Source: an uncultured Verrucomicrobiota bacterium (GTDB taxonomy: Bacteria > Auribacterota > JABMQX01). Taken from it: a DNA stretch of 64,000 bases. The notes beneath the pieces are model-generated. The model did not search any database. It was not told where the DNA came from and saw nothing but the letters and a program-made list of their open reading frames with translations. The position numbers and the translations under genes are program-made. This document shows positions 23,221 through 59,264 of the stretch, one piece after another; the stretch's first letter is position 1, and each line of letters begins with the position of its first letter. The stretch lies in the NCBI GenBank assembly GCA_964516325.1, contig CAZFAP010000001.1, forward strand, positions 2,221 through 66,220, written 5' to 3'.

Positions 23221-23243
23221 ATTATTGATAACGATTGCTAATA
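23221..23243 (+). promoter_or_regulatory. Candidate Fur/PerR box (autoregulatory operator) immediately upstream of the Fur-family gene
   Basis: ATTATTGATAACGATTGCTAATA is AT-rich and partly dyad-symmetric; it resembles GATAATGATAATCATTATC-type boxes. It is the only AT-rich patch in a GC-rich intergenic region. Confidence 0.3.
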
Positions 23244-23698
23244 TGAGAAAGCAAGTTGCGAAGAAGAATTATCGGATGACGCGCCAGCGGCAGATCATCC
23301 TCGAAGAGCTCAAGAAGGTCAAAACGCATCCGACGGCCGATGAGCTTTACGAAAGGGTTCGGAGGCGGCTGCCGCGGATTAGCCTGGGCACCGTGTACCG
23401 GAACCTCGATGTTCTCAGCCAGTTCGGCGCGATACAGAGACTCGATCTCGCGGGCGTGCAGCGGCGATTCGATGGAGAACCGGAAGCCCATTATCATGTG
23501 CGCTGCATCACGTGCGGGCGAGTGGACGATGTGTCGTTCGAGCCAATGCCGGGGCTTGAGCGCGGGCTCCGCGATTTGTGCGGTTACAAGGTCGTCGGAC
23601 ACAGACTGGAATTCATCGGCTTGTGTCCGAAGTGCCAGAAACGGAGAAGGCTCTCTCATTCGATAGGCGTCAAAACCGGATTTGCCCCCGGGGCATGA
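23243..23698 (+). CDS. Fur-family metalloregulator, probably a peroxide-responsive repressor (PerR-like)
   Basis: Fur-fold DNA-binding helix (TRQRQIILEEL), HxH metal-site residues and two CxxC pairs (CITCG, CPKC). It heads an island of rbr/sor/dfx/ferritin genes. Confidence 0.8.
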   Translation: MRKQVAKKNYRMTRQRQIILEELKKVKTHPTADELYERVRRRLPRISLGTVYRNLDVLSQFGAIQRLDLAGVQRRFDGEPEAHYHVRCITCGRVDDVSFEPMPGLERGLRDLCGYKVVGHRLEFIGLCPKCQKRRRLSHSIGVKTGFAPGA

Positions 23699-24108
23699 TG
23701 CGGCGCGGCGCCGCGCTCACTTCAATTCTTGCCTTATTGGTAGGAAAGCGAAGCGACGGTTGATCCAGATGGAGAGTGCCGAATCAAGGGATGTTTCCTG
23801 CGCCTTGGGCAGGGAACGACTATTCAGGTGCTGGCGAGTGGACCCATGGACATTCATGGTCCCCTGACGCGGGGCCCTTGGAAAATCGTTAAGTGTCCGG
23901 CAACGGCTGATCTTCCTCGGAACCAAAGATTGACTTTGGAGGTTTACAAAGTAAACATAAATTCTCCTGAGGAGTCGGGGGGTGAAACTTCATTGCTCAC
24001 CGTTCTTGACGCTAACTTGAGCAGGCCGTCGGGGTTGTCACAGTCCGAGGCGGTTTGCCAATGCAGTCCCGAACGGTGGAATGTGTCTTTCCGAAAGGAG
24101 GGAATACC

Positions 24109-24504
24109 ATGGCGGATTTGAGCGAGCGAATTCAAAAGGCGGACTGGAAAAAAGAGAAGCACGTGCCGGTCATCGAGGCGCCGGACCAGGTGAAGGCGGA
24201 TGAGCTTTTCGAGGTCAAGGTAACGCTTGGCAAGGAGATCGCTCATCCCAACACCACAGAACATCATATTCGCTGGATTTCTGTTTTCTTCCATCCCGAA
24301 GGGGGGAAGTTTAGCTTTGAGGTAGGCCACTTTGAATTTTCAGCGCACGGCGAGTCGGTTGACGGCCCGAACAAGGGACCCGTTTACACGCACCACGAAG
24401 TCAAAGCGTCATTAAAGATCAACAAGCCGGGAAGCCTGCACGCCCTTGCCTTGTGCAATATCCACGGGCTTTGGGAGTCGAGCAAGACAATCGCGGTGAG
24501 TTAG
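24109..24504 (+). CDS. Superoxide reductase, class II (neelaredoxin-type 1Fe-SOR)
   Basis: KHVPVIE, H-x5-H, CNIHGLW and the E...K motif; 131 aa from ATG 24109 with an AAAGGAGGG RBS. Confidence 0.85.
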   Translation: MADLSERIQKADWKKEKHVPVIEAPDQVKADELFEVKVTLGKEIAHPNTTEHHIRWISVFFHPEGGKFSFEVGHFEFSAHGESVDGPNKGPVYTHHEVKASLKINKPGSLHALALCNIHGLWESSKTIAVS

Positions 24505-24743
24505 CGGGGGTGTAATCGCCACGCTTTGCGCGTGCGAAGCCGCTTCCCTCGCCGTCGGCAGTCGTGGCATGGTGCAATTTCCCAATCGGCGGCTTTGCGA
24601 ACGTGACGTTCTGTCTGAGCCGACCCCGTGCTCTTGTTGAACGCGGATTGGTCTTGTCGGGAGGCGATGCTCCCTGATGTCGAGACGAATCCGGCGCCGA
24701 AAAGGATTTGCCAAAGTTTTGCTTCTGGAAAGGAGGTGCGGAG

Positions 24744-25106
24744 ATGCCTGAATTCCTGAATCCATTTAGTGGAGTGGTTCCCGGGCGCAAGCTCACTGTT
24801 CGCGAGCTGACACGGGCGATTCGCCTTGCCCTTTCTGCCGAGGAAGAGGCCGTCCATCTCTACGAGGCGCTTGCCGACGCCGCCGACAATGAACTGGCGA
24901 AGGCGGTCCTTCAGGACATAGCGGATGAGGAACGAGTCCATGCGGGAGAGTTCCAGCGCGTTCTGAAGATTCTCCTGCCTGACGAAGAGAAGTGGCTCGC
25001 GGACGGCGCCGCGGAGGTGGACGACATCGCCGAGAAGGTCAAAAAGGGCGAGCCTTCCTCGCCAGAGGGCAAGAAGGTCCCCACAGTCGGCGACATGAAA
25101 GAGTAG
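24744..25106 (+). CDS. Encapsulated ferritin-like protein (EncFtn-like cargo) with a putative C-terminal targeting peptide
   Basis: About 120 aa; paired ExxH diiron motifs (EEEAVHLYE, DEERVHAGEF); flexible Gly/Pro/Ser tail ending PTVGDMKE; lies immediately upstream of the encapsulin shell gene. Confidence 0.6.
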   Translation: MPEFLNPFSGVVPGRKLTVRELTRAIRLALSAEEEAVHLYEALADAADNELAKAVLQDIADEERVHAGEFQRVLKILLPDEEKWLADGAAEVDDIAEKVKKGEPSSPEGKKVPTVGDMKE

Positions 25107-25196
25107 GTCCATTTTATTTAGGAGGGGCTTGGGAGAATCAGCGAGGCTAAGATTGCAAAGCCTCCGAAAGAGAAAATTGAATCAGGAGGATACGCA

Positions 25197-26009
25197 ATGT
25201 CTGAGAAATTTCTGCATCGCGGAGATGCTCCGTTCGACGAAAAAGTCTGGGGAAAAATTGATGAAGCGGTTGTGGGCGCCGCGAAAAGCCAGTTGTCCGC
25301 TCGGCGAGTCTTGCACGTCGAGGGCCCCTATGGACTCGGACTGAAATCTATCCCCGGTCCGGAGTCGGAAGTAGGGGAGACCGCCGTTGAAGGCGCGACC
25401 GTGACGGCGAGTCTCGCCGTTCCGGTCGTTGGCATTCAAAGCTCGTTTCGCCTGTCCGCACGAGACATCGCGGCATTTGAGGAAACGGGCCTCCCCTTCG
25501 ATCTGCGGGGCGCGGTCGCCGCAGCGATCGCCTGCGCAAAACAAGAGGATGCCCTCCTCTTTCACGGTTCCAAGGCGCTCGGTGTCCAGGGATTGCTTAC
25601 CGCTAAGGGAACGCAGCAGCGGAAGCTCAAGCCGTGGACGGAAGTCGGCGTCGCCGTGGATGAGCTCATTCAGACGGTCAACGTTCTCGACGGCGTCGGA
25701 TTTCATGGGCCCTATTCGCTGGCTCTGGCGCCATCGCTCTACAATCTCTTGTTCCGACGGTATCCCCAGGGCGACAAGACCGAGATCGAGCACCTGCGAC
25801 TGCTGGCGACCGACGGCATAGTCAAGGCCCCCGCGATCAAGTCTGGCGGCGTGCTGTTGGCCTCCGGCCGGCAGTTCGCAGCAATTGTCCTGGGACAGGA
25901 CATCCTGACGTCCTTCGTGGGTCCCGCCGGTCGGGATTATGAGCTCTTAGTTTCGGAGAGTGTCGCGCTTCGGTTGGTCGAGCCGGCGGCGGTGTGCGTC
26001 CTGAAGTAG
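25197..26009 (+). CDS. Family-1 encapsulin shell protein (HK97 fold, linocin-M18-like)
   Basis: 270 aa. Clear homology to the T. maritima encapsulin: FLHRGDAPFDEKVWGKIDE...RRVLHVEGPYG, GPYSLAL, VLGQD...SF. Confidence 0.85.
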   Translation: MSEKFLHRGDAPFDEKVWGKIDEAVVGAAKSQLSARRVLHVEGPYGLGLKSIPGPESEVGETAVEGATVTASLAVPVVGIQSSFRLSARDIAAFEETGLPFDLRGAVAAAIACAKQEDALLFHGSKALGVQGLLTAKGTQQRKLKPWTEVGVAVDELIQTVNVLDGVGFHGPYSLALAPSLYNLLFRRYPQGDKTEIEHLRLLATDGIVKAPAIKSGGVLLASGRQFAAIVLGQDILTSFVGPAGRDYELLVSESVALRLVEPAAVCVLK

Positions 26010-26242: not shown

Positions 26243-26815
26243 ATGGGACTCAGAGGGTCGAAAACCGAGAAGAACGTCCTGACCGCGTTTGCGGGGGAAT
26301 CCCAGGCGAGAAATCGCTATACCTTCTTCGCCAGCCAGGCGAGGAAGGAAGGGTTCGTGCAGATCGCCGACATATTTGAGGAGACCGCCAATCAGGAAAA
26401 GGAGCACGCCAAGCGGTTCTTCCAACTCCTCCAGGGCGGTGACGTGGAGATTACAGCCGCGTTCCCTGCGGGCATCATAGGGACGACCGCCGAGAACCTC
26501 CGAGCGGCTGCCGCAGGCGAGGGACACGAGTGGGGGCAATTGTACCCGTCCTTCGCAAGCGTCGCGCGGCAGGAGGGCTTCGAGGAAATTGCCAGGATGT
26601 TCGATGCCATCGCCGTCGCTGAAAAGCAGCATCAGAAACGGTACCTCGGGCTGCTCGCGAACGTGGAGGCGGGCGTCGTCTTCAAGAAAAAGAGAAGCGT
26701 CGTCTGGCGATGCAGAAACTGCGGCTATGTCCACGAAGGCGCCGAGGCGCCCGAACAATGTCCAGCGTGTGCCCATCCCCAGGCGTTTTTTGAACTGTTG
26801 TGCGAGAACTGGTGA
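26243..26815 (+). CDS. rbr: Rubrerythrin (diiron four-helix bundle plus a C-terminal rubredoxin-like domain)
   Basis: ExxH diiron motifs and a C-terminal CRNCGY...CPAC FeCys4 site. Confidence 0.9.
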   Translation: MGLRGSKTEKNVLTAFAGESQARNRYTFFASQARKEGFVQIADIFEETANQEKEHAKRFFQLLQGGDVEITAAFPAGIIGTTAENLRAAAAGEGHEWGQLYPSFASVARQEGFEEIARMFDAIAVAEKQHQKRYLGLLANVEAGVVFKKKRSVVWRCRNCGYVHEGAEAPEQCPACAHPQAFFELLCENW

Positions 26816-26890
26816 GTCCCTCTTGCTTCGAGGCTCGCGGGGTTCGGTCTTGTGGCTTTGGTCGAACAACCGTAGCACGGGGAGGAAACG

Positions 26891-27346
26891 ATGAGTAAGT
26901 TCAGCTCCGCAGACGAAATTTTGGATTTCGCCGTCGCCAGGGAGGAGGAATCCGTTCGATTCTACTCCGCCTTGGCGGCTAAGGTGCAGAAGCCCCCTAT
27001 GCGAGAAGTCTTCAACGATTTCTCGCGCGAAGAAGAGGGGCACAAAGCAAGACTTCAGGCCATCAAACGTGAGAAGGTCCTGGTGCCCGCAACAGAGAAA
27101 ATTCAGGACCTCAAGGTCGCGGACTACCTGGTTGATGTCCAGCCCGCGACGGATATGGAATATCAGGACGCACTGATCCTGGCGATGAATAAGGAGAAAT
27201 CCTCGTTCCGGCTCTATATGGACCTCGCGGCGAGGACCGACAATCAGAGACTCCGGTCAACCTTACTCGCCCTCGCACAGGAAGAGGCGAAGCATAAGTT
27301 GCGGTTCGAGGTCGAGTACGACGACCACATCCTGAAACAGGATTGA
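26891..27346 (+). CDS. Ferritin-like / rubrerythrin-family diiron protein (no rubredoxin domain)
   Basis: REEESVRFY and EEEGHKARL are ExxH-type motifs; 151 aa; RBS GGGAGGAAACG. Confidence 0.7.
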   Translation: MSKFSSADEILDFAVAREEESVRFYSALAAKVQKPPMREVFNDFSREEEGHKARLQAIKREKVLVPATEKIQDLKVADYLVDVQPATDMEYQDALILAMNKEKSSFRLYMDLAARTDNQRLRSTLLALAQEEAKHKLRFEVEYDDHILKQD

Positions 27347-27421: not shown

Positions 27422-27511
27422 ATGATTTACAGGTACCTCCTCGGCGCCATCATTGGCGCCGCTATTGGCGGAATCGTTGGGCACCTCGGAAAATCCGCCG
27501 GCAGCACCTGA
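27422..27511 (+). CDS. Putative 29-aa glycine-zipper membrane peptide
   Basis: MIYRYLLGAIIGAAIGGIVGHLGKSAGST; 3 nt downstream a second glycine-zipper opens the next gene. A small peptide without a domain hit. Confidence 0.3.
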   Translation: MIYRYLLGAIIGAAIGGIVGHLGKSAGST

Positions 27512-27514
27512 CCC

Positions 27515-27955
27515 ATGTCCGGCAGCCCCACGGGTGGGGTTCTCATTGGAGCTGTCATCGGAATTCTCATAGCGTCGGGTTTGGGCAGCCCGCGAGAAGA
27601 CCAGCCCCCGTCGCGGTACTTGACGGAACTCAAAACGGAAAACGACCTCAGTCAGGTGCTGGCAAGCAACGAGGTGGTCGTAGTGGACTTCTACTCAGAC
27701 CGTTCTCTGCCGAGCAAGAAGCTCAGACCGACCATCAACGAGCTTGCGGCGCAATACGCTGGCAGGGTTGCTGTCGTTGCGGTCAACCTCGGCAGATTTC
27801 CAGGTCTGCGAAGTCAGTACAACATCGCAGACGTTCCCGAAGTGAGGATATTCAAGGCGGGTAAGCTTGAGAGGAGCATCTCCCGGTCAAAACCGAAAAG
27901 GGTTTACGAGGAGGCGCTCGATAGCTTGTTGCCCGCGCGGACCGAAGCGAAATAG
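27515..27955 (+). CDS. Thioredoxin-fold protein with an N-terminal glycine-zipper TM helix, lacking the CxxC active site
   Basis: VVVDFYSDRS...VAVNLG...VPEVRIF follows the thioredoxin beta-alpha-beta order but contains no cysteine. Confidence 0.55.
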   Translation: MSGSPTGGVLIGAVIGILIASGLGSPREDQPPSRYLTELKTENDLSQVLASNEVVVVDFYSDRSLPSKKLRPTINELAAQYAGRVAVVAVNLGRFPGLRSQYNIADVPEVRIFKAGKLERSISRSKPKRVYEEALDSLLPARTEAK

Positions 27956-28002: not shown

Positions 28003-28821
28003 ATGAAGGGGTTCAGAAGCGCGATTTCCGGGTTCATTCTCGTCGTCACTGCGGTCGGGCACGTCCTGGCCAACGAGGGGCACGCGCACGCCGTCTCCTG
28101 GGGTAGCCTCGTCGTGCCATTCGGGATCGCAACCCTTTCGCTGGCGGTCCTAACCGCCTTGCTCGGACTGCTAATGCCGAAGAACCGCAAGCTCTTGTTC
28201 AAGTGGCACAGGCGGTTCGCCGTGGCGACCCTCGTCGCAGGTGTCTGTCATGCGACGCTCGTCCTCCTGTTCCACGAGGAAGGAGAGGTTCAAAAGGAGG
28301 AACCTATGAAAGAGCGAAAAGATGTCGTGACCATGAAAGGCAATCCGTTGACCTTGCTTGGGGATGAGATAAAAGAAGGCGACGCGGCCCCCGATTTCGT
28401 CGTGATTGACAACAGCCTATCTCCGGTGAAGTTCTCATCGTTCCGCGGCAAAGTGTGCATCATCGCGTCCGTTCCTTCTCTCGACACGTCGGTCTGCGAT
28501 CTCGAAACGCGAAAATTCAACGAAGAGGCTGGGCGGCTGGGACCGGACGTGGTGATCCTGACAATAAGCATGGACCTGCCATTCGCCCAGAAACGTTGGT
28601 GCGGAGCAGCCGGTGTGACGAGGGTCCAGACCTTTTCCGACCACCGCGACGCTTCCTTCGGCAAAGCGTACGGCGTCCTCATCAAGGAGCTGCGGTTGTT
28701 GACGAGGGCGGTCTTCGTCGTGGACCGGCAGGGCACAATCCGCTACGTCGAACCGGTCAGTGAGATGACCAAAGAGCCGGACTACGAGGCTGCTCTGCAA
28801 GCCGTGCGCCTGTTACTCTGA
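28003..28821 (+). CDS. tpx: Thiol peroxidase (Tpx, atypical 2-Cys peroxiredoxin) fused in frame to a ~100-aa N-terminal 3-TM His-rich segment. An internal SD+ATG at 28306 would give a canonical soluble Tpx.
   Basis: The Tpx core is DFVVIDNSLSPVKFSSFRGKVCIIASVPSLDTSVCDLETRKF. Both 28003 and 28306 are preceded by AAGGAG(G) RBS sequences. Confidence 0.8.
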   Translation: MKGFRSAISGFILVVTAVGHVLANEGHAHAVSWGSLVVPFGIATLSLAVLTALLGLLMPKNRKLLFKWHRRFAVATLVAGVCHATLVLLFHEEGEVQKEEPMKERKDVVTMKGNPLTLLGDEIKEGDAAPDFVVIDNSLSPVKFSSFRGKVCIIASVPSLDTSVCDLETRKFNEEAGRLGPDVVILTISMDLPFAQKRWCGAAGVTRVQTFSDHRDASFGKAYGVLIKELRLLTRAVFVVDRQGTIRYVEPVSEMTKEPDYEAALQAVRLLL

Positions 28822-28864: not shown

Positions 28865-30379
28865 ATGAGAAATCTCCTTCTCACGTTGGCTTTTCTCGCA
28901 ATCGTCAGGGTATGCGCCGCCGACGAAAGCCTCCCAACCGCCGACGCTCCCGTCAGCAAAGAAACGAAAAGCTGCCTCGTCTGCCACAATTCCGTCAGCC
29001 CCGGAATTGTTGCCGATTGGAGGAAGAGCCTTCATTCCATGACCAGCCCGAGCGAAGCTCTCAAGAAGGAGCGTCTCCAGAGGAGGATTTCCGTTGAGAA
29101 GGTGCCGGAAAACCTGGCTGGCGTCGTCGTGGGGTGCGCCGAGTGTCACAATTTGCATCCCGAAAACCATAAAGATACATTCGAGCACGGCGGCTACAAA
29201 ACGCACGTGGTGGTGACTCCCGCCGACTGCGCGACCTGTCATCCAACGGAGGCAGATCAGTTTCGGGACAATTTGATGTCCCACGCGCACCTCAACCTTC
29301 GCAATAATTCCCTTTATCACGAGCTAAGCGATTCGATTAACGGCATTCATTCCTTCCGGGGGATGGTGACGGCCGTCGCGGCGCCCGATCCCGAAACCAG
29401 CCACGATTCCTGCTTCTATTGCCACGGGACCGCCGTGGAGGTCAGGGGCATCCATACGAGGGAGACCGCTCTCGGCGAAATGGAGTTTCCGACCCTGTCC
29501 GCCTGGCCGAATCAGGGTGTGGGGCGGTTAAATCCCGACGGAACCATGGGCTCTTGTGCTGCCTGTCACACCCGGCACCGCTTCTCCGTCGAGATGGCGA
29601 GAAAGCCCTATACGTGCGCCGAGTGCCACGAGGGACCGGACGTGCCCGCATACAAAGTCTACATGGTGAGCAAACACGGCAATCTCTTCTCTTCCCAGGG
29701 CGACGAATGGAACTTCGACGCGGTCCCGTGGGTTATAGGAGAGAACTTCACCGCTCCGACCTGTGCGGCGTGCCACGCCAGCCTTGTCGTGAGCGAGAGC
29801 GGCGAGGTTGTGGCACAGCGGACGCATCGCATGAATGATCGTCTCCCGTGGAGGATTTTCGGTTTGATTTACGCGCACCCTCATCCCAAATCCCCTGATA
29901 CCACCATCGTCAAGAACAAAGCAGGCTTGCCGCTGCCAACCGAACTCACCGGCGAGCCGGTCGCCGAGTTCCTCATAGATGCGAACGAGCAAGAAAAGAG
30001 GCTTGAGGCGATGCAAAACGTCTGCCTCGCGTGCCACGCCAAGGGGTGGGTGACAGGACAATTCGCACGCTTCGAGAACACCATTAAGACCACCAATCAG
30101 ATGACCCTCACCGCGACGCAAATACTGAAGACAGCCTGGGAAAAGGGCGCCGCGAAATGCGCAGCGCAGAACGATAGCATCTTCAATGAATCCATCGAGA
30201 AAAAGTGGGTTGAGCAGTGGCTCTTTTTTGCCAACTCGACGCGTTTTGCCTCCGCCATGATGGGCGCCGATTACGGCGTATTCGCCAACGGACGCTGGTA
30301 TCTGAGCAGGAATATTCAAGACATGGCGGATTGGCTTGCGCTCAAGCTTGAGACAATTCAAGGCGAGAAGAGACAGTGA
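28865..30379 (+). CDS. Secreted octaheme c-type cytochrome (HAO/ONR-like multiheme family)
   Basis: Signal peptide plus 8 CxxCH motifs: CLVCH, CAECH, CATCH, CFYCH, CAACH, CAECH, CAACH, CLACH. Confidence 0.85.
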   Translation: MRNLLLTLAFLAIVRVCAADESLPTADAPVSKETKSCLVCHNSVSPGIVADWRKSLHSMTSPSEALKKERLQRRISVEKVPENLAGVVVGCAECHNLHPENHKDTFEHGGYKTHVVVTPADCATCHPTEADQFRDNLMSHAHLNLRNNSLYHELSDSINGIHSFRGMVTAVAAPDPETSHDSCFYCHGTAVEVRGIHTRETALGEMEFPTLSAWPNQGVGRLNPDGTMGSCAACHTRHRFSVEMARKPYTCAECHEGPDVPAYKVYMVSKHGNLFSSQGDEWNFDAVPWVIGENFTAPTCAACHASLVVSESGEVVAQRTHRMNDRLPWRIFGLIYAHPHPKSPDTTIVKNKAGLPLPTELTGEPVAEFLIDANEQEKRLEAMQNVCLACHAKGWVTGQFARFENTIKTTNQMTLTATQILKTAWEKGAAKCAAQNDSIFNESIEKKWVEQWLFFANSTRFASAMMGADYGVFANGRWYLSRNIQDMADWLALKLETIQGEKRQ

Positions 30380-30843: not shown

Positions 30844-30848
30844 CTACC

Positions 30849-31907: not shown

Positions 31908-32630
31908 ATGGAAGCATTATCTCGTCGCGACGTGTTTAGACTGCTTGGCGCCTCCGCCGCATGGGCGTCCGCGATCAGTTTCTCGGAGAGGTCCGCGAAA
32001 GCCGAAACATCGGAAGCTCTCAGCATCGCGCCCTACAAGCTCCCCGATCTGCCCTATCCGGTTGACGCTCTCGAACCGCACCTCGACGCACACACGTTGA
32101 CCATCCATCACGACAAGCATCACGCTGCCTACGTGCAGGGCTTGAATGCAGCGCTCGTCGGATTGCAGGAGGCTCGAAAGAAAGGAGACTTTGCGGCAGT
32201 CCAGGCTCTATCCGGTGCGCTCGCGTTCCACGGGTCCGGGCACCTGCTGCACACGCTCCACTTCGCCAACCTTCACCCGAAGCCAGCCAGGCCGGCGGGC
32301 GCCTTGTCGGGCGCGATCGAGGCGCAGTTTGGCAGCCTCGATGCCTTCATCGCGCACCTTGTCGCCGCCGCGAATACCGTTGCGGGCAGCGGCTGGGGGA
32401 TTCTCGCTTACGAACCTGTCGGGCGACGCCTGCTGGTGCTTCAGGTTGAGAAGCATGAGAACCAGCTCGTGTGCGGCGCCATTCCTTTGCTCGTGATTGA
32501 TGTCTGGGAGCATGCCTATTACCTGAGCTATCAGAACCGGCGAGCGGATTATGTGAAGGCCATCATGAACGTCATTCACTGGGACGAAGTTGCCCGTCGG
32601 TTCGACGAGGCGAGGCGCATTCACGGCTGA
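31908..32630 (+). CDS. Fe/Mn superoxide dismutase with a Tat signal peptide
   Basis: SRRDVFRLLGASAAWASA Tat motif; SOD motifs HHDKHH and DVWEHAYY. Confidence 0.9.
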   Translation: MEALSRRDVFRLLGASAAWASAISFSERSAKAETSEALSIAPYKLPDLPYPVDALEPHLDAHTLTIHHDKHHAAYVQGLNAALVGLQEARKKGDFAAVQALSGALAFHGSGHLLHTLHFANLHPKPARPAGALSGAIEAQFGSLDAFIAHLVAAANTVAGSGWGILAYEPVGRRLLVLQVEKHENQLVCGAIPLLVIDVWEHAYYLSYQNRRADYVKAIMNVIHWDEVARRFDEARRIHG

Positions 32631-32721: not shown

Positions 32722-34398
32722 ATGGCAAGTAAAACGTTCAACATCCTTGTGGGCGGAGAAGCCGGTCAGGGGCTGGTCACCGTCGGGGAATTGCTGACCC
32801 GGTGCCTCGTCCGCTCCGGTTATTTCGTCGTTGTCACTCAGACCTATCAATCGCGCATTCGCGGCGGGCACAATACGTTCGCCGTCCGTGTCAGCACAGA
32901 CCCAATCGTCGCTCCTCAAGAGCCCGTTGATCTCCTCGTCGCGCTGAATGCAGAGACCGTGAAGCTCCATCGAGAGGAACTGGTCCCCGACGGGCTGACC
33001 ATTGTTGACGAAGCCTTCGGCCTCACGGATGACTCCTGCCTGAAGGTTCCGTTCAAAGAGCTCTCCACCCGGAGGTCCACGAACATTGTGGCGCTTGCCG
33101 TCGTTGCGTCTTCGGTGGGACTCGACGAAAACCTCCTCTCCCGCACGATGGAGGAGTACTTCGGGAAGAAGGACCCCAAAGCCGCAGAAGAGAACCAGCA
33201 GGCGTTGAGGAGTTCGTTTCAGTGGTGCGCGGGTCGCCCAGCGAGGGTCAGCAAGCTGCCGTCCGTTCAAAATCCTCCAAAGCGCCTGATGATGAATGGA
33301 AATGAGGCGATTGCCTTGGGCGCCCTTTCCGCCGGGCTGAGGTTCTATTCCTTCTATCCCATGACTCCCTCCACCTCCATCGGGCAGTATCTTGCCGGAC
33401 AAGCAAAGCGGCTGGGCTTGATTGTCGAGCAGGGGGAGGATGAGATTGCCGTCATCAACATGGCGTTGGGCGCCTCCTTCGCCGGCGCCCCGAGCATGGT
33501 TTCGACCTCTGGCGGCGGATTTGCGTTGATGGTCGAGGGGGTCAGTCTTGCGGGAATGACCGAGACGCCCGTCGTAATTGTCGTTGGGCAGCGCCCCGCC
33601 CCAGCAACCGGACTCCCGACCCGCACGGAGCAGGCGGACCTCGAGTTCGTCCTCCACGCCGGACACGGCGAATTTCCGCGGGCGATCTTCTCTCCGGGTA
33701 CCGTCGAGGAGTGTTTCTATCTGACGCGTAAGGCGTTTGACCTCGCCGAGCGGTATCAGAGTCCAGTCTTCATCTTGACAGACCAATTCCTCGCCGATTC
33801 CTATCGTGCGGTCGCGCCCTTCGACTTGAAGGACCTCTCGCCCGTTCGTCCCGGAGTAGGGGAGGACGCGATTTCGCGCCCGTACAGAAGGCACGCGTTC
33901 ACGGAAAGCGGCGTCTCACCTCGCCTCCTTCCCGGTTTGACAGCACACCTTGTCGTCACCGACAGCGACGAGCACACCGAAGACGGGCACATAACGGAAG
34001 ACCTTTCCGTCCGGCGGCGGATGGTCCAAAAAAGGTTGAGAAAGCTGGAAGGAATTCGTCAGGACGTTACTCCGCCCGAGTTCCGTGGCGACGAGAATCC
34101 TGAACTCTTGCTCGTTTCATGGGGGAGCACAAAAGGCGCGGTCTGCGAAGCAGCTTCTCTCCTGAGGTTGCAGGGGCGTCGGGTTGTGGTGCTCCATTTT
34201 TCGCAGGTCTGGCCCATGGTCACCGACCAGGTCGTCCCGATTTTGGAAAAGGCTGGGGAGGTCGCCTGCGTGGAAGGAAATGCCACCGGTCAACTCGTAC
34301 GCTTGATCCGCCGTGAGACCGGTTTTGCCATCGAGAGGCGAATCCTCCGGTGCGACGGTTTGCCCTTCACGCCGGAATCAATCGTTCGTGAGCTGTAA
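32722..34398 (+). CDS. korA: 2-oxoacid:ferredoxin oxidoreductase, fused gamma/alpha subunit (two-subunit OFOR type)
   Basis: N-terminal gamma-like domain (ILVGGEAGQG) followed by an alpha domain (GNEAIALGALSAG...YPMTPST); 558 aa from ATG 32722. Confidence 0.85.
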   Translation: MASKTFNILVGGEAGQGLVTVGELLTRCLVRSGYFVVVTQTYQSRIRGGHNTFAVRVSTDPIVAPQEPVDLLVALNAETVKLHREELVPDGLTIVDEAFGLTDDSCLKVPFKELSTRRSTNIVALAVVASSVGLDENLLSRTMEEYFGKKDPKAAEENQQALRSSFQWCAGRPARVSKLPSVQNPPKRLMMNGNEAIALGALSAGLRFYSFYPMTPSTSIGQYLAGQAKRLGLIVEQGEDEIAVINMALGASFAGAPSMVSTSGGGFALMVEGVSLAGMTETPVVIVVGQRPAPATGLPTRTEQADLEFVLHAGHGEFPRAIFSPGTVEECFYLTRKAFDLAERYQSPVFILTDQFLADSYRAVAPFDLKDLSPVRPGVGEDAISRPYRRHAFTESGVSPRLLPGLTAHLVVTDSDEHTEDGHITEDLSVRRRMVQKRLRKLEGIRQDVTPPEFRGDENPELLLVSWGSTKGAVCEAASLLRLQGRRVVVLHFSQVWPMVTDQVVPILEKAGEVACVEGNATGQLVRLIRRETGFAIERRILRCDGLPFTPESIVREL

Positions 34399-34415
34399 CT
34401 CAAGACGAGGGCAAA

Positions 34416-35267
34416 ATGGTAACCATTGATGACTACGGAAAATATGAAACGGCGTGGTGTCCCGGCTGTGGAAACTTCGGTATTCTGAGAGCCGTCAAGC
34501 AGGCGCTCCTTGCCAGCGGGATCGAGCCACACCAGGTTCTTTTCGTCTCCGGCATCGGGCAGGCGGCAAAGGCCCCGCATTACCTGAATGCCAATCTTTT
34601 CAACGGTCTTCACGGGCGCTCCCTCCCGGTGGCGACGGGCGCCAAGCTCGCCAATCCCCGGCTCGTCGTCATCGTCGAAAGCGGCGATGGCTGCACCTAT
34701 GGCGAAGGCGGAAACCACTTCTTAGCCGCGATTCGCCGAAACATTGACCTTACGCTCCTCGTTCACAACAACCAGGTCTATGGCTTGACGAAAGGGCAGG
34801 CGAGCCCCACTTCGGAGGTCGGCTTCGTTACCAAGGCTCAGCCGGAGGGCGTCTTCGCCCAGCCCTTCAACCCGGTCGCAGTGGCCGTCGCTATGCACGC
34901 CGGATTTGTCGCGCGGAGCTTCGCCGGAATGCTCGACCATTTGGCGAAGATGATCCAGCAGGCAATTGCCCACCGGGGCCTCTCTCTTGTTGACATACTT
35001 CAACCATGTCCTTCGTTCAACAAGGTGAACACGTGGGAATGGTATCAGCGGCGGTGTTACGTTTTGCCGGAGGATCACGACCCCACGAGTTGGGAAGCCG
35101 CCATGAAGGTCGCCTATGAGTGGGGCGACCGCATCCCCGTCGGGATTATTTATCGAAACAATAGACCGCCGTTCGAGGAGAACTCTTCCGTTTTGCGTCA
35201 GGGACCGCTCGTTGGGCGAGACCTCGATAAGGAAGCGATGTCTGCGACTCTGGAGCGATTTGCCTGA
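34416..35267 (+). CDS. korB: 2-oxoacid:ferredoxin oxidoreductase beta subunit (TPP-binding)
   Basis: WCPGCGNFGIL, GDGCTYGEGGNH TPP motif. Confidence 0.9.
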   Translation: MVTIDDYGKYETAWCPGCGNFGILRAVKQALLASGIEPHQVLFVSGIGQAAKAPHYLNANLFNGLHGRSLPVATGAKLANPRLVVIVESGDGCTYGEGGNHFLAAIRRNIDLTLLVHNNQVYGLTKGQASPTSEVGFVTKAQPEGVFAQPFNPVAVAVAMHAGFVARSFAGMLDHLAKMIQQAIAHRGLSLVDILQPCPSFNKVNTWEWYQRRCYVLPEDHDPTSWEAAMKVAYEWGDRIPVGIIYRNNRPPFEENSSVLRQGPLVGRDLDKEAMSATLERFA

Positions 35268-35401: not shown

Positions 35402-36211
35402 ATGGCTTTTCTGCGGGACCTTCATCCTGTCGTTCAGGCTCTTCTGGCTACATGCTTCACCTGGGGCGTAACCGCGCTGGGGGCGGCCTGGGTGTTCCTT
35501 TTCAAGAGAGTGAGCCAGAAGGTCCTTGGTGCCATGCTTGGTTTCGCGGGCGGGGTCATGGTCGCGGCCAGTTATTGGTCGCTCCTCGCTCCGGCGATCG
35601 AAATGTCCAAAGGCAGAAGTCTTCCGGCTTGGTTTGCTCCTGCCGTCGGATTTCTCGCGGGAGCTGTTTTCCTGCGAGGCATTGACCTGATTTTGCCGCA
35701 TCTCCATCCGGGCTTTTCGATGGAGGAGGCCGAGGGCATCCCGACATCCTGGCGGCGGAGCATCTTGCTGGTTCTGGCGATAACATTGCACAACATCCCC
35801 GAGGGGCTTGCGGTAGGGGTTGCCTTTGGCGCCGTTGCCGCAGGGTTCTCTGGCGCCACTCTCGGCGCGGCAGTGGCGCTTGCTATCGGAATCGGCCTTC
35901 AGAATTTCCCTGAGGGCCTGGCGGTTTCATTGCCGCTTCGTCGTGAAGGGATGTCTCGCTTGAAGAGTTTTTGGTATGGGCAGTTGTCGGCAGTGGTTGA
36001 GCCGATTGCGGGCGTGCTCGGCGCCGCCGCGGTCATGGCAGCGAAGCCGGTTCTTCCCTATGCCCTATCGTTTGCCGCGGGCGCCATGATCTTTGTCGTC
36101 GTTGAGGAGGTGGTGCCCGAATCCCACCACGGCGGGAACGCTCACCTGGCGACTCTTGGCTTCATGGTGGGATTCATTGTAATGATGGTTCTTGACGTCG
36201 CCCTGGGCTGA
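35402..36211 (+). CDS. ZIP-family metal cation transporter (ZupT-like)
   Basis: [10 protein letters not shown] and QNFPEGLAV signature helices; 8 TM helices. Confidence 0.85.
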
Positions 36212-36371
36212 AGCGTTTTCGATCGTTCGCTCGGGCGCGGACGTGCGATGCGCTACAGGTCAATTGCTAATGCAGGCTGACGAATGCAGTTCGGCCGGGG
36301 ATAGAGAAACGGAGTCAAATCACAGACAGCGGAACGTCGCAAGTTTTTGGCAAAACACGGGAGGAATGACC

Positions 36372-37004
36372 ATGGCAACTCTTCTGCACATTCAGGCAAC
36401 CGCAACGCCCGAATTATCGTACTCTCTTCGAGCGGCGCAGGCTTTCCTGGAAAGCTATCGAGAATCCCACCCGGGCGACAGGATTGACACCCTCGACCTC
36501 GGGAAAGACCGTATCCCGGATTTCCTCGGCCTTGTGGCGCGGGGAAAGTACCGCATTCTCCATGGCGAGCCTCACACCAAGGAGGAAGCGAATGCCTGGG
36601 AAGCCGTCGCTTCTGAAATCGAGCGATTCAAAAAAGCCGACAAGTACGTCATTTCGTCGCCCATGTGGAACTTCACCATACCCTATCGTCTGAAGCAATA
36701 TTTCGACGTCATCGTCCAACCCGGCTACACATTCGCCTATTCTTCGGAGAAAGGGTACACCGGATTGGTGACCGGGCGACCGGTTATGTTGTTTCTGGCG
36801 CGCGGCGGGGAATACAAGCCCGGCACCGGCGCCGCTGCGTTCGATTTCCAGCGCCCATACCTGGAGACTATCCTGCGGTTCATTGGGTTCACGGAGATCG
36901 GTGTGATCGTGGTCGAGCCGACGCTCCTGGGTGGTCCCCAGGTCGCCGAGAAAAAGGTGAACGAAGCAATTGCAGAGGCTCGTGAGAAAGCCAAAACGTT
37001 TTAA
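36372..37004 (+). CDS. azoR: FMN-dependent NADH-azoreductase / flavodoxin-like quinone reductase
   Basis: Flavodoxin-like fold with SSPMWNF; overall AzoR architecture. An ATG at 36366 is an alternative start. Confidence 0.75.
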   Translation: MATLLHIQATATPELSYSLRAAQAFLESYRESHPGDRIDTLDLGKDRIPDFLGLVARGKYRILHGEPHTKEEANAWEAVASEIERFKKADKYVISSPMWNFTIPYRLKQYFDVIVQPGYTFAYSSEKGYTGLVTGRPVMLFLARGGEYKPGTGAAAFDFQRPYLETILRFIGFTEIGVIVVEPTLLGGPQVAEKKVNEAIAEAREKAKTF

Positions 37005-37109
37005 GCTTGACCGGTCCGGCGCCCCGGCGGGCACTGCGACGGGGCCGGTAGTCTGCGTGAATCCGCGTTCGTCTGTGGTTTCACCCATTTTTGCGGAAGG
37101 AGAAACGGA

Positions 37110-38147
37110 ATGAAAGCAGCGGTCATTCGTGAGCATGGCGGACACGACGTTATTCACATCGAGGAGATTCCTAATCCAGAAGCGGCGGAAGGCGAAATCG
37201 TCCTTGAACTTCGCGCCGCGGCGCTGAATCATCTCGATATATGGGTGCGCAAAGGGCGCCCCGGGCTGGTCCTCCTCTTCCCTCACGTGTTAGGTTCAGA
37301 TGGCGCGGGCGCCGTCGTAGAGACCGGTCCGGCCGTCCGTGGCTTCTCGGTCGGGGATGAAGTCATTCTAAATCCGGGTCTCAGTTGCGGGGTCTGCGAG
37401 TACTGCCAGCGTGGGGAACAGAGCGAGTGTCCGGCGTTTGGCATACTGGGCATGTCGCGCCCGGGGACCTTCGCCGAGCGGGTCGCCGTGCCTGCCGCCA
37501 ACGTCCATCCGAAGCCGCCCACGCTCAGTTTTGAGGAAGCTGCCGCTTTGCCTCTGGCGCATCTCACCGCCTGGAGAATGCTGATGACTCGGGCGGGGCT
37601 TCAACCCGGCGAGACTGTTCTAATTCATGGAATTGGCGGCGGAGTCGCTCTTGCGGCCCTTCAATTCGCCAAGCTCCTGAGCGCTGGGGTCATCGTGACA
37701 TCGTCATCCGACGAGAAGCTCTCCCGCGCAAAGGAGCTGGGCGCCGATCACACGGTTAACCACAGGACTGCGCCCGACCCGACCGCCGCCATCCACGAAA
37801 TCACCGAGGGGCGCGGCGTTGACGTTGCCGTGGATACAACGGGAGCAGCTACCTTCCCCGTTGACATTGCCGTGGTTCGTCGGGGCGGGAGAATCGTTCT
37901 CTGTGGCGTTACGACGGGCGCAATAGCGGAGACCGATTTGCGGAGAGTGTATTGGAACCAGTTGACCATTCTCGGTTCCACCATGGGGTCCCACGAGGAC
38001 TTCCGGCAGATGCTTCGCGCGGTCACCAATGCGAAGCTGAAGCCCGTGATTGATTCGGTTGTTCCTCTCGACGGTTGCAGCGACGCCATCGCTCGGATGG
38101 AGAACGGCGAGCAGTTCGGCAAGATTGTTCTGGCCATTTCAGGTTGA
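37110..38147 (+). CDS. Zn-dependent alcohol dehydrogenase / quinone oxidoreductase (MDR superfamily)
   Basis: GHDVIHIEEIPNP N-terminal catalytic domain and a GIGGGVALAALQFAK Rossmann motif. Confidence 0.85.
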   Translation: MKAAVIREHGGHDVIHIEEIPNPEAAEGEIVLELRAAALNHLDIWVRKGRPGLVLLFPHVLGSDGAGAVVETGPAVRGFSVGDEVILNPGLSCGVCEYCQRGEQSECPAFGILGMSRPGTFAERVAVPAANVHPKPPTLSFEEAAALPLAHLTAWRMLMTRAGLQPGETVLIHGIGGGVALAALQFAKLLSAGVIVTSSSDEKLSRAKELGADHTVNHRTAPDPTAAIHEITEGRGVDVAVDTTGAATFPVDIAVVRRGGRIVLCGVTTGAIAETDLRRVYWNQLTILGSTMGSHEDFRQMLRAVTNAKLKPVIDSVVPLDGCSDAIARMENGEQFGKIVLAISG

Positions 38148-38229
38148 CCTGACTGTAGATGAGACAGATTCGGCACGATCCGTGTTGACCGGCGTCCATG
38201 TGCGGTTTCAAAGTTAGGAGGATGATTTC

Positions 38230-39438
38230 ATGAGCGGACCATTTAAAGCAACCCAGGTGACAGAGAACATTTTTTGGGTGGGCGCCATTGACTGGGCCCT
38301 GCGAAATTTCCACGGCTACGCCACCAGCCGCGGCACGACCTACAACGCCTACCTCATCCTCGCCGACAAAATCACCTTGGTTGATACGGTCAAGGCGCCC
38401 TTCAAGGATGAAATGCTTTCCCGAATCGCCTCGGTCATTGATCCTGCGAAGGTTGACTACATCATCTCGAATCACTCGGAGATGGACCATTCGGGATGCC
38501 TCCCAGAGGTCATCGAGCGAATTAAGCCTCAAAAAGTCCTCGCTTCCGAGAACGGCGTCAAGGCTCTTCGAGAGCATTTCCACACTTCCCATGACATCGT
38601 CGCGGTCAGGGACGGCGAGAGCCTCAGCCTCGGGAACATGACCCTCTCCTTCATGGAGACCCGGATGCTCCACTGGCCCGATAGCATGTTCACCTATGTT
38701 GCGGAGCAGCAGTTCCTCTTCTCGCAGGATGCCTTTGGCATGCACCTCGCCAGCACCGAAAGATTTGACGATGAGCTTGACAGCCAGGCCCTCGAATACG
38801 AAGCCGCCAAATACTACGCCAACATCCTCCTGCCGTTTTCCTCCTTCGTCACGAGGCTTTTGGAGAAGCTTGGGAAGCTCGGTATCCCAATCAGGACGAT
38901 GGCGCCGGACCATGGCCCCATCTGGCGCAAAGACGTTAACAAAATAGTCGAGCTTTATTCCCGCTGGGCTGCTCAGAAGCCCACCATGAAGGCCGTCATC
39001 ACCTACGACACCATGTGGCAGAGCACCGCCCTCATGGCGCGGGCGATATGCGACGGACTGGTATCCGGCGGGGTCAGCGTCAAAGTCATGCCCCTCGATG
39101 CCTGCCACCGCAGCGATGTCGCCACGGAAGTCTTCGACGCCGGCGCTCTCCTGGTCGGCTCACCCACCATGAACAACACGATCTTCCCGACGGTCGCGGA
39201 CGTTATGACGTATCTCAGGGGTCTGAAGCCCCGGAACAAAATCGGTGCGGTCTTCGGCTCCTACGGCTGGAGCGGCGAAGCGGTGAAGCAACTGGGAAAT
39301 ATGCTCGCCGAGATGAAGATCGAGCTGGTCGGCGAACCGATCAACGCGAAATACGTGCCCGATGGCGAAACCCTCGCCAGGTGCTTTGCTCTCGGCGCCC
39401 TCGTCGCCGAAAAGCTCAGGGGGAAATGCGGCCCCTGA
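38230..39438 (+). CDS. Flavodiiron protein (FprA / rubredoxin:oxygen oxidoreductase type O2/NO reductase)
   Basis: Metallo-beta-lactamase-like diiron domain (HSEMDHSG) followed by a flavodoxin domain (VFGSYGWSGEA). Confidence 0.9.
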   Translation: MSGPFKATQVTENIFWVGAIDWALRNFHGYATSRGTTYNAYLILADKITLVDTVKAPFKDEMLSRIASVIDPAKVDYIISNHSEMDHSGCLPEVIERIKPQKVLASENGVKALREHFHTSHDIVAVRDGESLSLGNMTLSFMETRMLHWPDSMFTYVAEQQFLFSQDAFGMHLASTERFDDELDSQALEYEAAKYYANILLPFSSFVTRLLEKLGKLGIPIRTMAPDHGPIWRKDVNKIVELYSRWAAQKPTMKAVITYDTMWQSTALMARAICDGLVSGGVSVKVMPLDACHRSDVATEVFDAGALLVGSPTMNNTIFPTVADVMTYLRGLKPRNKIGAVFGSYGWSGEAVKQLGNMLAEMKIELVGEPINAKYVPDGETLARCFALGALVAEKLRGKCGP

Positions 39439-59262: not shown

Positions 59263-59264
59263 TC

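Follow-up and report, generated by a model that had tools for sequence, protein, structure and literature searches.

The systems closest to the locus analysed here are the PerR-controlled defence clusters of anaerobes. The PerR regulon of Clostridium acetobutylicum contains rbr, dfx/sor and fprA, and Desulfovibrio carries the operons perR-rbr-rdl and sor-rub-roo. In C. difficile, PerR likewise controls an oxygen defence made up of rbr, dfx/sor and fprA (PMC8546684, PMC11841134). The window (the whole 64,000-nucleotide stretch of metagenomic DNA that was analysed) shares with these clusters a Fur-family peroxide sensor gene beside rubrerythrin, superoxide reductase and flavodiiron genes, and autoregulation through an AT-rich inverted repeat at the regulator's own promoter is predicted here too. 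The present cluster is far larger, at approximately 21 ORFs, and adds encapsulin/EncFtn, an IhOCC-type cytochrome, a Tat-exported SOD, a two-subunit 2-oxoacid oxidoreductase (OFOR) and a ZIP transporter. It differs further in having one detectable operator, an arginine at the PerR Asn61 position and no rubredoxin gene; a dedicated reductase for the superoxide reductases is likewise not encoded in the cluster.

ORFs, translations and Pfam/NCBIfam matches place 19 genes between 23243 and 39438, every one on the plus strand. All 18 items of the original prediction were recovered at their positions on this strand, and the count rises to 19 because KorA and KorB are separate genes. Many of the family assignments exceed curated NCBIfam cut-offs, while others are supported by Pfam or fall below the cut-off. 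The run of O2/ROS-defence and iron-storage genes is real and conserved in related genomes, and each of its components is of an already known kind:

23243-23698, plus strand: PerR-like Fur-family regulator, 151 aa (PF01475, 1.8e-29)
24106-24504, plus strand: 1Fe superoxide reductase, neelaredoxin type, SOR1 (PF01880, 4e-34; TIGR00332, 112 bits against a cut-off of 62)
24744-25106, plus strand: EncFtn cargo (EncB_fam, 105.5 against 90)
25197-26009, plus strand: family-1 encapsulin shell (NF041155, 225.9 against 100; PF04454, 2e-66)
26243-26815, plus strand: rubrerythrin with diiron and rubredoxin-like domains (NF045767, 302 against 200)
26891-27346, plus strand: ferritin-like/erythrin protein without rubredoxin domain (PF02915, 3.7e-14)
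27422-27955, plus strand: fusion of DUF6132 (a pair of glycine-zipper TM helices) with a Trx-like domain, carrying an in-frame TGA at 27509-27511
28003-28305, plus strand: His-rich three-TM protein module, in frame with tpx and with no stop codon between
28306-28821, plus strand: thiol peroxidase Tpx (NF001808, 204.9 against 123)
28865-30379, plus strand: Sec-exported IhOCC-type octaheme cytochrome c of the HAO clade, eight CxxCH motifs
30469-30843, plus strand: 2Fe superoxide reductase, desulfoferrodoxin (TIGR00320, 219.8 against 146.9)
30849-31346, plus strand: non-haem ferritin (PF00210, 1.7e-40)
31358-31849, plus strand: rubrerythrin-like diiron protein without rubredoxin domain (PF02915, 4e-8)
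31908-32630, plus strand: Fe/Mn SOD with twin-arginine signal peptide (Sod_Fe_N and Sod_Fe_C)
32722-35267, plus strand: two-subunit 2-oxoacid:acceptor oxidoreductase (TIGR03710, 642 against 483; TIGR02177, 361 against 262)
35402-36211, plus strand: ZIP/ZupT divalent-metal transporter (PF02535, 3e-25)
36369-37004, plus strand: FMN-dependent NADH azoreductase/quinone-reductase-like flavoprotein (PF02525, 1e-43; NF010075, 126, below its cut-off of 188)
37110-38147, plus strand: Zn-MDR dehydrogenase/quinone-oxidoreductase-like protein (ADH_N and ADH_zinc_N; best NCBIfam model PIG3 quinone oxidoreductase, below cut-off)
38230-39438, plus strand: class-A flavodiiron protein, O2 and/or NO reductase (ODP/lactamase_B and flavodoxin; NF008887, 434 bits, short of the 635 cut-off)

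Three further metagenome assemblies carry nearly identical clusters. In locus L004 the gene order of the window is complete, and the proteins are 64-81% identical in amino-acid sequence; L002 and L087 hold a subset comprising the greater part of the cluster and lack perR at this position (L087 was compared from rbr onward). The sister genome L002 lacks perR, dfx, sod and azo-adh-fdp. The host organism is most likely a relative of a MAG labelled Verrucomicrobiota. Smaller perR-rbr-fdp-cytochrome-dfx-ftn operons are found in Thermodesulfobacteriota, and compact clusters of the form box-perR-(rbr)-fdp-cytochrome-dfx-ftn-rbrL are present in L003, L010 and L011, the last of which ends just after the cytochrome gene. 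A rival reading takes the cluster for a genomic island recently acquired from Thermodesulfobacteriota. Several proteins resemble those of Thermodesulfobacteriota MAGs as closely as those of the sister L002 (cytochrome 70% and Dfx 78% in L003, cytochrome 71% in L002), and the difference in content between the sister genomes points the same way. Horizontal acquisition had been suggested as something to be looked for in base composition, which gives it no support: GC is indistinguishable from that of the flanks, GC3 differs little (0.71 within the cluster, 0.68 beyond it; p = 0.14), and the RSCU correlation is r = 0.91. In GC3 and codon usage the cluster is thus like its flanks and not a compositional island, and neither an integrase nor a tRNA junction nor direct repeats were seen at its borders. 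The same orf419-DUF362 flank precedes the cluster in the window and in L002, which argues for long residence followed by later gain and loss of modules. Recent transfer is therefore quite unlikely, and we favor a long-resident chromosomal cluster.

The regulator was examined for its placement within the Fur family, where it lies closer to PerR than to Fur by best match. Among solved structures it is closest to B. subtilis PerR (PDB 2FE3, 1.2e-25, ungapped), with the best Fur structure at 3.4e-20, and the NCBIfam PerR model (9.5e-33) outscores the Fur model (2e-25). As in B. subtilis PerR (2FE3/3F8N), all five regulatory metal ligands are kept (H29, D77, H83, H85 and D96, equivalent to B. subtilis H37, D85, H91, H93 and D104), together with the Cys4 Zn site (Cys88/91/128/131). 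Canonical PerR proteins have an Asp for peroxide sensitivity and an Asn for DNA recognition (PMC8638967). The former is present as D96, where Fur has Glu; the latter is not, with a Fur-like Arg53 at the position of B. subtilis N61, and the protein, at 113 bits against 180, reaches none of the NCBIfam PerR equivalog cut-offs. The proposed PerR-like head of the cluster thus stands on best matches and Asp96, and is qualified by the recognition residue and the cut-offs. One could instead take the protein for an iron-responsive Fur and the locus for one primarily of iron homeostasis, carrying the ROS enzymes as passengers, with ferritin, encapsulated ferritin, ZIP and a nearby Nramp gene as the iron cluster. 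Arg53 (PMC8638967 for residue roles), an operator half-site (TGATAAC) resembling a Fur box, the three ferritin-type genes of the locus and its two metal transporters (ZIP and Nramp) fit that reading. We consider it improbable, given that PerR models and structures outscore those of Fur by 5-7 orders of magnitude, that residue 96 is Asp and not the Fur Glu, and that orthologues of the regulator head rbr/fdp/dfx operons and not iron-uptake genes, with perR at the head of related clusters in L003, L004, L010, L011 and L037. A PerR-like assignment is the one used below.

Four features around perR and SOR1 bear on regulation:

23197-23225, plus strand: sigma-70-like perR promoter, TTGACA-17 nt-CATTAT, matching 10/12 consensus positions, the best site in the scanned region
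23225-23241, no strand assigned: predicted PerR-type 7-1-7 operator TTGATAACGATTGCTAA, an imperfect inverted repeat
23690-23723, plus strand: GC-rich hairpin where perR ends (stop codon), which could act as a weak terminator
23930-23956, plus strand: putative SOR1 promoter region, with a -35 element TTGACT at 23930-23935 and a perfect palindrome GTTTACAAAGTAAAC at 23942-23956

The box originally proposed at 23221-23243 is borne out, since it contains the 7-1-7 inverted repeat at 23225-23241. This clade-typical operator overlaps the perR -10 element and the expected transcription start, and ends 2 nt before the perR ATG. Its half-sites are TGATAAC and TAGCAAT, the first with a Fur-like TGATAA, and not the TTATAAT of B. 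subtilis PerR. In a matrix built from 11 sites drawn only from other loci (consensus TTAGGAATCATTCCTAA), the operator scores 15.1 bits and outranks every other 17-mer of the 64 kb, where the 99.99% quantile is 6.9; the second-best 17-mer (11.3) lies within cytochrome coding sequence. The same arrangement of CTTGACA, -10 element and box also precedes perR in L003, L004, L010, L011 and L037.

A shared-operator single regulon, as first envisaged, is not supported because the perR promoter holds the sole intergenic site of the cluster: the remaining intergenic regions all score 4.9 bits or less with the independent matrix, and a repeat search turned up no intergenic repeat shared across the cluster. 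The entire 16 kb could still form one PerR regulon, either as one long transcript initiated at the perR promoter or with PerR acting at several internal promoters, and the genes are indeed all co-directional, with terminator-like sites no denser than in shuffled sequence (21 found, 20 expected). Moreover, L003, L010 and L011 have one box before perR followed by a tight operon with several of the homologues, and related clusters mostly have a single box each (11 sites among 232 upstream regions). We nonetheless regard this as doubtful, on account of the low intergenic scores outside the perR promoter, intergenic gaps of 407, 239 and 233 bp, the hairpin at the perR stop codon, a conserved -35 element before SOR1, and the missing perR at this position in L002 and L087. 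The 61 nt from 23690 to 23750, covering that hairpin and a second one, fold at -25 kcal/mol (z = -2.0), equalled by 7 of 200 shuffles, and the U-tract is weak. At SOR1, TTGACTTTG is kept 5′ of the orthologue in L002; the palindrome is not conserved there, occurs exactly once in the window, and has two 2-mismatch sites, no more than chance. From the long gaps and the SOR1 -35 element, the genes after perR would probably form several transcription units.

Both superoxide reductase classes are present, as predicted, in the 1Fe enzyme (TIGR00332), which lacks the FeS4 N-domain, and the desulfoferrodoxin (TIGR00320). The encapsulin module follows the family-1 encapsulin/EncFtn arrangement of the Thermotoga/Rhodospirillum type, with the cargo gene directly 5′ of the shell gene and a C-terminal targeting peptide (PTVGDMKE); a PTVG(D/N)(L/M)K C-terminus after a variable linker is kept in the window, L002 and L004. 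Unlike those systems, it lies within a multi-enzyme cluster behind a PerR-like gene. In P. furiosus, rubrerythrin and encapsulin reportedly form a functional partnership under O2 (bioRxiv 10.1101/2025.03.19.643997), and here rubrerythrin is the next gene downstream; cargo and shell are fused in Pyrococcus, whereas they are separate genes here.

Two of the predicted genes proved to have more complex reading frames. The Trx-like gene is present, but its CxxC is replaced by SLPS, and its ORF (27515-27955, starting at an ATG after the TGA) is the 3′ part of a TGA-interrupted DUF6132-Trx ORF. The read-through protein matches PF19628 (6.6e-7) across the TGA, and this codon falls where L001 and L004 have the second Cys of GKCxxGxCPLT; an identical TGA occurs in L002, L087 and L112, and an independent Logan assembly reproduces the sequence exactly. 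The region also contains a hairpin (27524-27541). The in-frame TGA at a conserved Cys is a candidate case of selenocysteine or of a split gene. Tpx is also present, with Cp in SLDTSVC and Cr in KRWCG, inside an ORF (28003-28821) that begins with a His-rich membrane protein. Its start is M102 of that ORF (ATG 28306), preceded by a separate ribosome-binding site (AAGGAGG, 28294-28300). L002 and L004 retain both this site and the ATG, and the same Met opens the tpx genes that stand alone. The first ~91 residues of the ORF belong to a separate, unannotated family of small His-rich membrane proteins, normally standalone and ~95 aa long, with 150 representatives at E < 1e-3. Nearly all of these end in ...CHAxLVxxFH, and some have a YHS-like N-domain.

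The two-subunit oxidoreductase consists of a fused gamma-alpha subunit (KorA, 32722-34398) and a beta subunit (KorB, 34416-35267). Two-subunit 2-oxoacid:ferredoxin oxidoreductases are known from aerobes and microaerophiles (Sulfolobus type), and the Hydrogenobacter ‘For’ isoenzyme is used under oxic conditions. The enzyme of the window has the same architecture, with no delta ferredoxin subunit; its repeated adjacency to the cytochrome and dfx suggests a possible link to ROS defence. Among the flavoprotein genes, the azoreductase-like start may instead be ATG 36375. The predicted Tat-type SOD was confirmed in its SRR twin-arginine motif, which is kept in the L004 orthologue within an otherwise dissimilar signal peptide.

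The best PDB match of the cytochrome is I. hospitalis IhOCC (4QO5; Parey et al. 2016, as cited in PMC9250108), at 3e-116 over nearly its full length with the same eight CxxCH motifs, compared with ~1e-18 for HAO and HDH. Within the HAO/HDH/IhOCC clade, the IhOCC class is described as being without the P460 Tyr cross-link and capable of reducing nitrite (PMC9250108). The present protein differs from its archetype in being bacterial and in having relatives beside dfx, rbr, fdp, perR and korAB in many genomes. Of 79 related cytochrome loci, 38 have one or more ROS-defence homologues within 6 kb, almost invariably on the cytochrome's own strand, and 16 have KorB within that distance. Gene neighborhood thus suggests that the cytochrome may act in ROS defence; our literature search found no paper reporting an IhOCC-type cytochrome within a ROS-defence cluster.

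A possible mechanism can be drawn for the cluster as a whole. The Fe/Mn-bound regulator would occupy 23225-23241 and block its own promoter, until H2O2 oxidises its His ligands, aided by the Asp96 signature, and releases it from the operator; we would infer that O2 or H2O2 induces the cluster. In the cytoplasm, superoxide would be reduced by the 1Fe and 2Fe superoxide reductases, peroxides by rubrerythrin, the rubrerythrin-like proteins and Tpx, and O2 or NO by the flavodiiron protein. EncFtn/encapsulin and ferritin would oxidise and store Fe2+, limiting Fenton chemistry. In the periplasm, the Tat-exported SOD would remove superoxide, and the IhOCC-type cytochrome may take small N- or O-oxides as substrates. 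Reducing power could be supplied by the two-subunit 2-oxoacid oxidoreductase, through reduced ferredoxin, and by the two NAD(P)H flavo/MDR reductases, with the ZIP transporter adjusting metal supply. Taken together, the locus is most likely a chromosomal, long-resident supercluster that defends an anaerobe against O2, superoxide, peroxide and probably NO/nitrite, in both cytoplasm and periplasm, and that also sequesters iron.

An unbroken run of + strand genes extends over 23.2-39.4 kb in the ORF calls. Pfam and NCBIfam confirmed every gene call of the original prediction, with many matches exceeding curated cut-offs, and its gene-level description is real and accurate.

Genes of the cluster at 23243-39438, in order, as identified with Pfam and NCBIfam
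+ strand: Fur-family regulator (perR, 23243-23698), then 1Fe superoxide reductase (SOR1, 24106-24504), EncFtn, family-1 encapsulin
+ strand: rubrerythrin (rbr), ferritin-like protein, thioredoxin-fold protein, Tpx
+ strand: octaheme cytochrome c with eight CxxCH (28865-30379), desulfoferrodoxin (dfx, 30469-30843), ferritin (ftn), rubrerythrin-like protein (rbrL)
+ strand: Fe/Mn SOD, two-subunit 2-oxoacid:acceptor oxidoreductase (korA, korB), ZIP transporter
+ strand: azoreductase-like flavoprotein (azo), Zn-MDR dehydrogenase (adh), class-A flavodiiron protein (fdp, 38230-39438)

Both superoxide reductase classes are present, a 2Fe form with an N-terminal FeS4 domain and a 1Fe form with the ferrous domain only. 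The gene at 30469-30843 falls in the 2Fe class (TIGR00320 at 219.8 against a cut-off of 146.9, with TIGR00319 matched too), and that at 24106-24504 falls in the 1Fe class, TIGR00332 alone being matched. The gaps between cluster genes hold no rubredoxin or other small ORF. Clusters of rbr, sor and fdp linked to PerR are textbook anaerobe biology; each component here is of a known kind, and the core finding is unsurprising. What is distinctive is the combination of genes, its conservation, the hybrid PerR/Fur signature of the regulator, and the context of a cytochrome related to IhOCC of Ignicoccus hospitalis.

Scanning a genome collection with the cytochrome gave 80 loci, against which all cluster proteins were searched by tblastn. 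One of them, L004 from an unclassified MAG, repeats the window order from perR to fdp at 64-81% identity. The SOD carries SRR at its N-terminus, and this SRR is kept in the L004 orthologue while the remaining signal peptide has diverged, a conservation that fits Tat export of the enzyme. A subset of the cluster is found in L002, a locus labelled Verrucomicrobiota, and in L087, a metagenome contig that is cut off before SOR1 and within korA; both are without dfx, and L002 additionally lacks perR, sod and azo-adh-fdp. The upstream flank is common to L002 and the window (orf419 at 76% and DUF362 at 64% identity), which points to the window organism being a relative of L002, and to a cluster that has long kept its place in the chromosome through gain or loss of modules. 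Compact operons of the form box-perR-(rbr)-fdp-cytochrome-dfx-ftn-rbrL occur in three Thermodesulfobacteriota MAGs, L003, L010 and L011, although the L011 sequence stops shortly past the cytochrome gene.

The locus had been called an island, and GC and codon usage bear on possible horizontal acquisition. GC does not set the cluster apart from its flanks, GC3 is 0.71 in the cluster versus 0.68 outside (p = 0.14), RSCU correlates with the flanks at r = 0.91, and no integrase or flanking repeats were found at the cluster borders. A horizontally acquired genomic island is not supported by these results, and ‘supercluster’ fits the locus better than ‘island’. The sole compositional anomaly of the window is a block at about 57000-64000, where GC falls from ~0.58-0.60 to 0.52-0.54 and GC3 goes down to 0.59-0.65; its genes encode a PFL-like glycyl-radical enzyme (56899-59262), a radical-SAM activase (59265-60065), an M24 peptidase and an SSF symporter. 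At the Rfam gathering threshold, the window yields one tRNA only (tRNA-Leu).

Several features of the flanks are recorded here. An Nramp/MntH-type Mn/Fe transporter (16501-17745, minus strand) lies ~5.5 kb upstream and adjoins the L002 cluster as well, and an ArsR-family regulator with an ABC-2 exporter (20696-22864, minus strand), divergent from and adjoining perR, is absent from L002. Downstream, short GC-rich hairpin repeats ATGGGCATCTTGCCCAT and TCCCGCCAAAGGCGGGA occur at 39909-39930, 39949-39971 and 43530-43546, and at 6589-6610 and 11212-11234 of L004. The copies in the gene-poor 1.2 kb that follow fdp in the window match those in intergenic regions of the L004 cluster at 100% identity, and look like a dispersed REP- or MITE-like element shared between genomes. 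After the cluster, and before an ApbE flavin-transferase gene (40613-41809), comes a small acidic Cys-rich ORF (MCCDLCPEFEECEHPLDESEYGCLKCPEYHDC..., 40346-40510) with no Pfam match. A giant 1866-aa surface protein has eight BACON_2 repeats and a beta-helix (9833-15433, minus strand); taken with the Ig-like, FG-GAP and DUF6807 proteins found at 43.8-52.4 kb, it is in keeping with a PVC-type anaerobe that degrades polysaccharides.

The head gene encodes a Fur-family fold (PF01475 at 1.8e-29) with a structural Cys4 Zn site of two CxxC motifs, where C88, C91, C128 and C131 correspond to C96, C99, C136 and C139 of B. subtilis. Its best matches group it with PerR rather than Fur, as had been proposed. 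The closest solved relative is B. subtilis PerR 2FE3 (1.2e-25, ungapped), with the best Fur five orders of magnitude weaker. Two NCBIfam PerR models outrank all Fur models, yet none attains its equivalog cut-off (the top model, NF052545 PerR, scores 113 bits against a cut-off of 180, and Fur models 89.6 bits). In the ungapped alignment with 2FE3, all five regulatory ligands are retained (H29, D77, H83, H85, D96); the B. subtilis ligands are His37, Asp85, His91, His93 and Asp104, of which the last, as Asp and not Glu, marks peroxide sensitivity. In Bacillus Fur (9IRE), Glu stands opposite D96. Two residues are regarded as canonical for PerR (PMC8638967), this Asp and a recognition-helix Asn (N61 in B. 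subtilis), the latter specifying the PerR box over the Fur box. At the N61 position, however, the window protein has Arg53 (TVYRNL), and Arg is also found there in all orthologues examined (L003, L004, L010, L011 and L037). With the PerR ligands and cysteines kept but Asn replaced by Arg53, the regulator looks like a PerR-type sensor bearing a Fur-type DNA-reading residue.

A promoter-like site, TTGACA-17-CATTAT, ends at 23225, directly followed by the 17-mer TTGATAACGATTGCTAA and the perR ATG at 23243. The predicted operator is a 7-1-7 inverted repeat (23225-23241) that overlaps the -10 of the predicted perR promoter. Ahead of perR in L003, L004, L010, L011 and L037 these elements recur in the same order: CTTGACA, a -10, an inverted repeat rich in AT and the start codon. 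An operator matrix was built iteratively from upstream regions of ROS-gene homologues in related loci only, with the window excluded, and yielded the consensus TTAGGAATCATTCCTAA from 11 sites in 232 upstream regions. Scored with this matrix, the window operator is the top 17-mer of all 64 kb at 15.1 bits, the runner-up (11.3 bits) falls within coding sequence, and the 99.99% quantile stands at 6.9. Predicted autoregulation of perR is well supported at the sequence level.

The regulatory interpretation of the original prediction is partly supported: it holds for the PerR-like head gene, and a cluster-wide regulon through repeats of the 23221-23243 box in the island promoters is not supported. 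No other intergenic region in the cluster scores above 4.9 bits with the independent matrix, and no further copy of the box was found there by a five-site matrix, the refined other-loci matrix or a repeat search, the last of which also returned no shared intergenic element. A hairpin is located at the perR stop codon, and the 407-bp gap between perR and SOR1 contains a -35 element kept in L002. The lack of a shared intergenic element, the perR hairpin and the SOR1 -35 element point to separate transcription units. One long transcript across the cluster is possible, since terminator-like sites are present at chance level. Within the putative SOR1 promoter, shortly after its -35 element, stands a perfect palindrome, GTTTACAAAGTAAAC (23942-23956), which could be the operator of another regulator; the window contains no other exact copy, two matches with 2 mismatches are within chance, and the palindrome is not conserved in L002. 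The 13-nt match CTGCCGCGGNTTC, at equal distance 5′ of the cytochrome and korA starts, was taken as chance because it is not conserved in L002, L004 or L087.

Within the iron module, the encapsulin shell belongs to the HK97-fold Linocin_M18 family (NF041155 at 225.9 against a cut-off of 100). Its EncFtn cargo is encoded 90 bp upstream of the shell gene, matches EncB_fam at 105.5 (cut-off 90), contains EExxH motifs, and carries after a variable linker the conserved C-terminal targeting peptide PTVG(D/N)(L/M)K. The rubrerythrin gene lies downstream, and a rubrerythrin-encapsulin partnership under oxygen has been described for P. furiosus in a 2025 preprint (bioRxiv 10.1101/2025.03.19.643997).

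Two gene calls, Tpx and the Trx-like gene, are corrected here. The ORF at 28003-28821 opens with 91 residues that match small His-rich proteins of three TM helices, a family represented by 150 sequences, nearly all of which terminate exactly at ...CHAxLVxxFH; some have a YHS-like N-domain, a link that hints at metal handling. This unannotated family of ~95-aa membrane proteins occupies 28003-28305 of the window, in frame with tpx and with no stop between. Tpx proper begins at M102 (ATG 28306), preceded by AAGGAGG; the ribosome-binding site and Met are retained in L002 and L004, and standalone tpx genes use the same Met. The in-frame ORF upstream of tpx in L004 is DUF6132 instead. Given the ORF fusion and an internal start with its own ribosome-binding site, the product may be a tethered fusion, soluble Tpx, or both.

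DUF6132 also appears in the window, in a gene interrupted by TGA. The members of this family are small membrane proteins, built of two glycine-zipper helices with a CxxxxC loop, that have no assigned function; no paper on the family was found in the literature searched. An ORF from 27422 encodes the first helix and then meets TGA at 27509-27511, and the annotated Trx-like gene begins two codons on. With the TGA read through, the DUF6132 match spans the stop (6.6e-7). Opposite the TGA, L004 and L001 have the second Cys of GKCxxGxCPLT, L001 being an uninterrupted DUF6132-Trx with CPPC. The stretch 27422-27955 shows the selenoprotein pattern of an in-frame UGA opposite Cys in homologues, flanked on either side by conserved coding sequence. 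The window sequence agrees exactly with an independent Logan assembly, and L002 has the identical TGA-CCC-ATG (TGA at 8379-8381). A metagenome pattern scan gave 53 matches, of which two are real DUF6132 genes with TGA-CCN-ATG, one in the L002-like cluster of L087 (1412-1414) and one in L112 (about 1315-1317, minus strand), a standalone DUF6132 in unrelated context at 51% GC. The match in L122 appears to be a false positive, with upstream sequence resembling an anthranilate-synthase motif.

An in-frame TGA aligned with Cys, seen in at least two lineages, marks either a candidate selenocysteine or a conserved gene split. A CCCC-N4-6-GGGG hairpin, a possible SECIS arising from CCC and GGG-G codons, starts ~15 nt after the UGA (27524-27541 in the window) in all four TGA forms, which represent only about two independent lineages, and is absent from the two Cys forms. 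However, the 62 nt that follow the TGA fold no more stably than shuffled sequences, an ATG stands two codons downstream in all TGA forms, and the Trx CxxC is gone in the window and L002, with the window protein missing the first Cys too. Selenocysteine is a tentative and rather unlikely reading of this TGA, and the main alternative is a conserved functional split of the gene, with translation restarting at the nearby ATG. If selenocysteine were encoded, DUF6132 would include CxxxxU selenoproteins, one of them in an oxidative-stress cluster beside a possibly membrane-tethered Tpx and a periplasmic IhOCC-type cytochrome, and the gene offers a cheap lead toward a new selenoprotein.

The best PDB match of the octaheme cytochrome is 4QO5 (3e-116, full-length), which is IhOCC, and HAO and HDH match the window cytochrome only around one haem-rich segment. 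According to PMC9250108, IhOCC belongs to the HAO/HDH clade, lacks the P460 cross-link and counts among nitrite reducers. Solely from membership of the IhOCC branch, we infer that the window cytochrome would lack the P460 Tyr cross-link and may have nitrite/hydroxylamine reductase activity. Of the 79 loci with a close cytochrome relative, 38 carry one or more ROS-defence homologues (at least 40% identity) no further than 6 kb from the cytochrome gene, in nearly every case on its strand; among loci that extend 3 kb or more to each side, 23 of 42 do so. The neighbours counted are dfx (25), korB (16), fdp (15) and rbr (10). Loci with an IhOCC-type gene beside dfx, rbr, fdp, perR and korAB come from Thermodesulfobacteriota, Zixibacteria, Ignavibacteria and other MAGs, and in several cytochrome loci another multihaem paralogue of low similarity (22-24% identity) lies at a distance of a few kb. 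No paper joining octaheme cytochromes to these ROS-defence genes was found in the literature searched. The recurrent gene neighbourhood suggests that the cytochrome may act in periplasmic detoxification of nitrite, hydroxylamine, NO, or possibly peroxide or O2, and that the cluster may have a functional partner in the two-subunit oxidoreductase.

The supercluster is an unusually complete and conserved arrangement. It brings together ROS enzymes of the cytoplasm, two systems for iron storage, one of them an encapsulin, and periplasmic enzymes, and adds an oxidoreductase that may supply electrons. By pairing a PerR-like sensor with a DNA-reading residue of Fur type and an operator that is a hybrid to match, its regulator lends itself naturally to tests of how specificity is set in the Fur family. 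The most useful by-product is the recurrent ROS-defence context of the cytochrome, which provides a testable physiological setting for IhOCC-family cytochromes.
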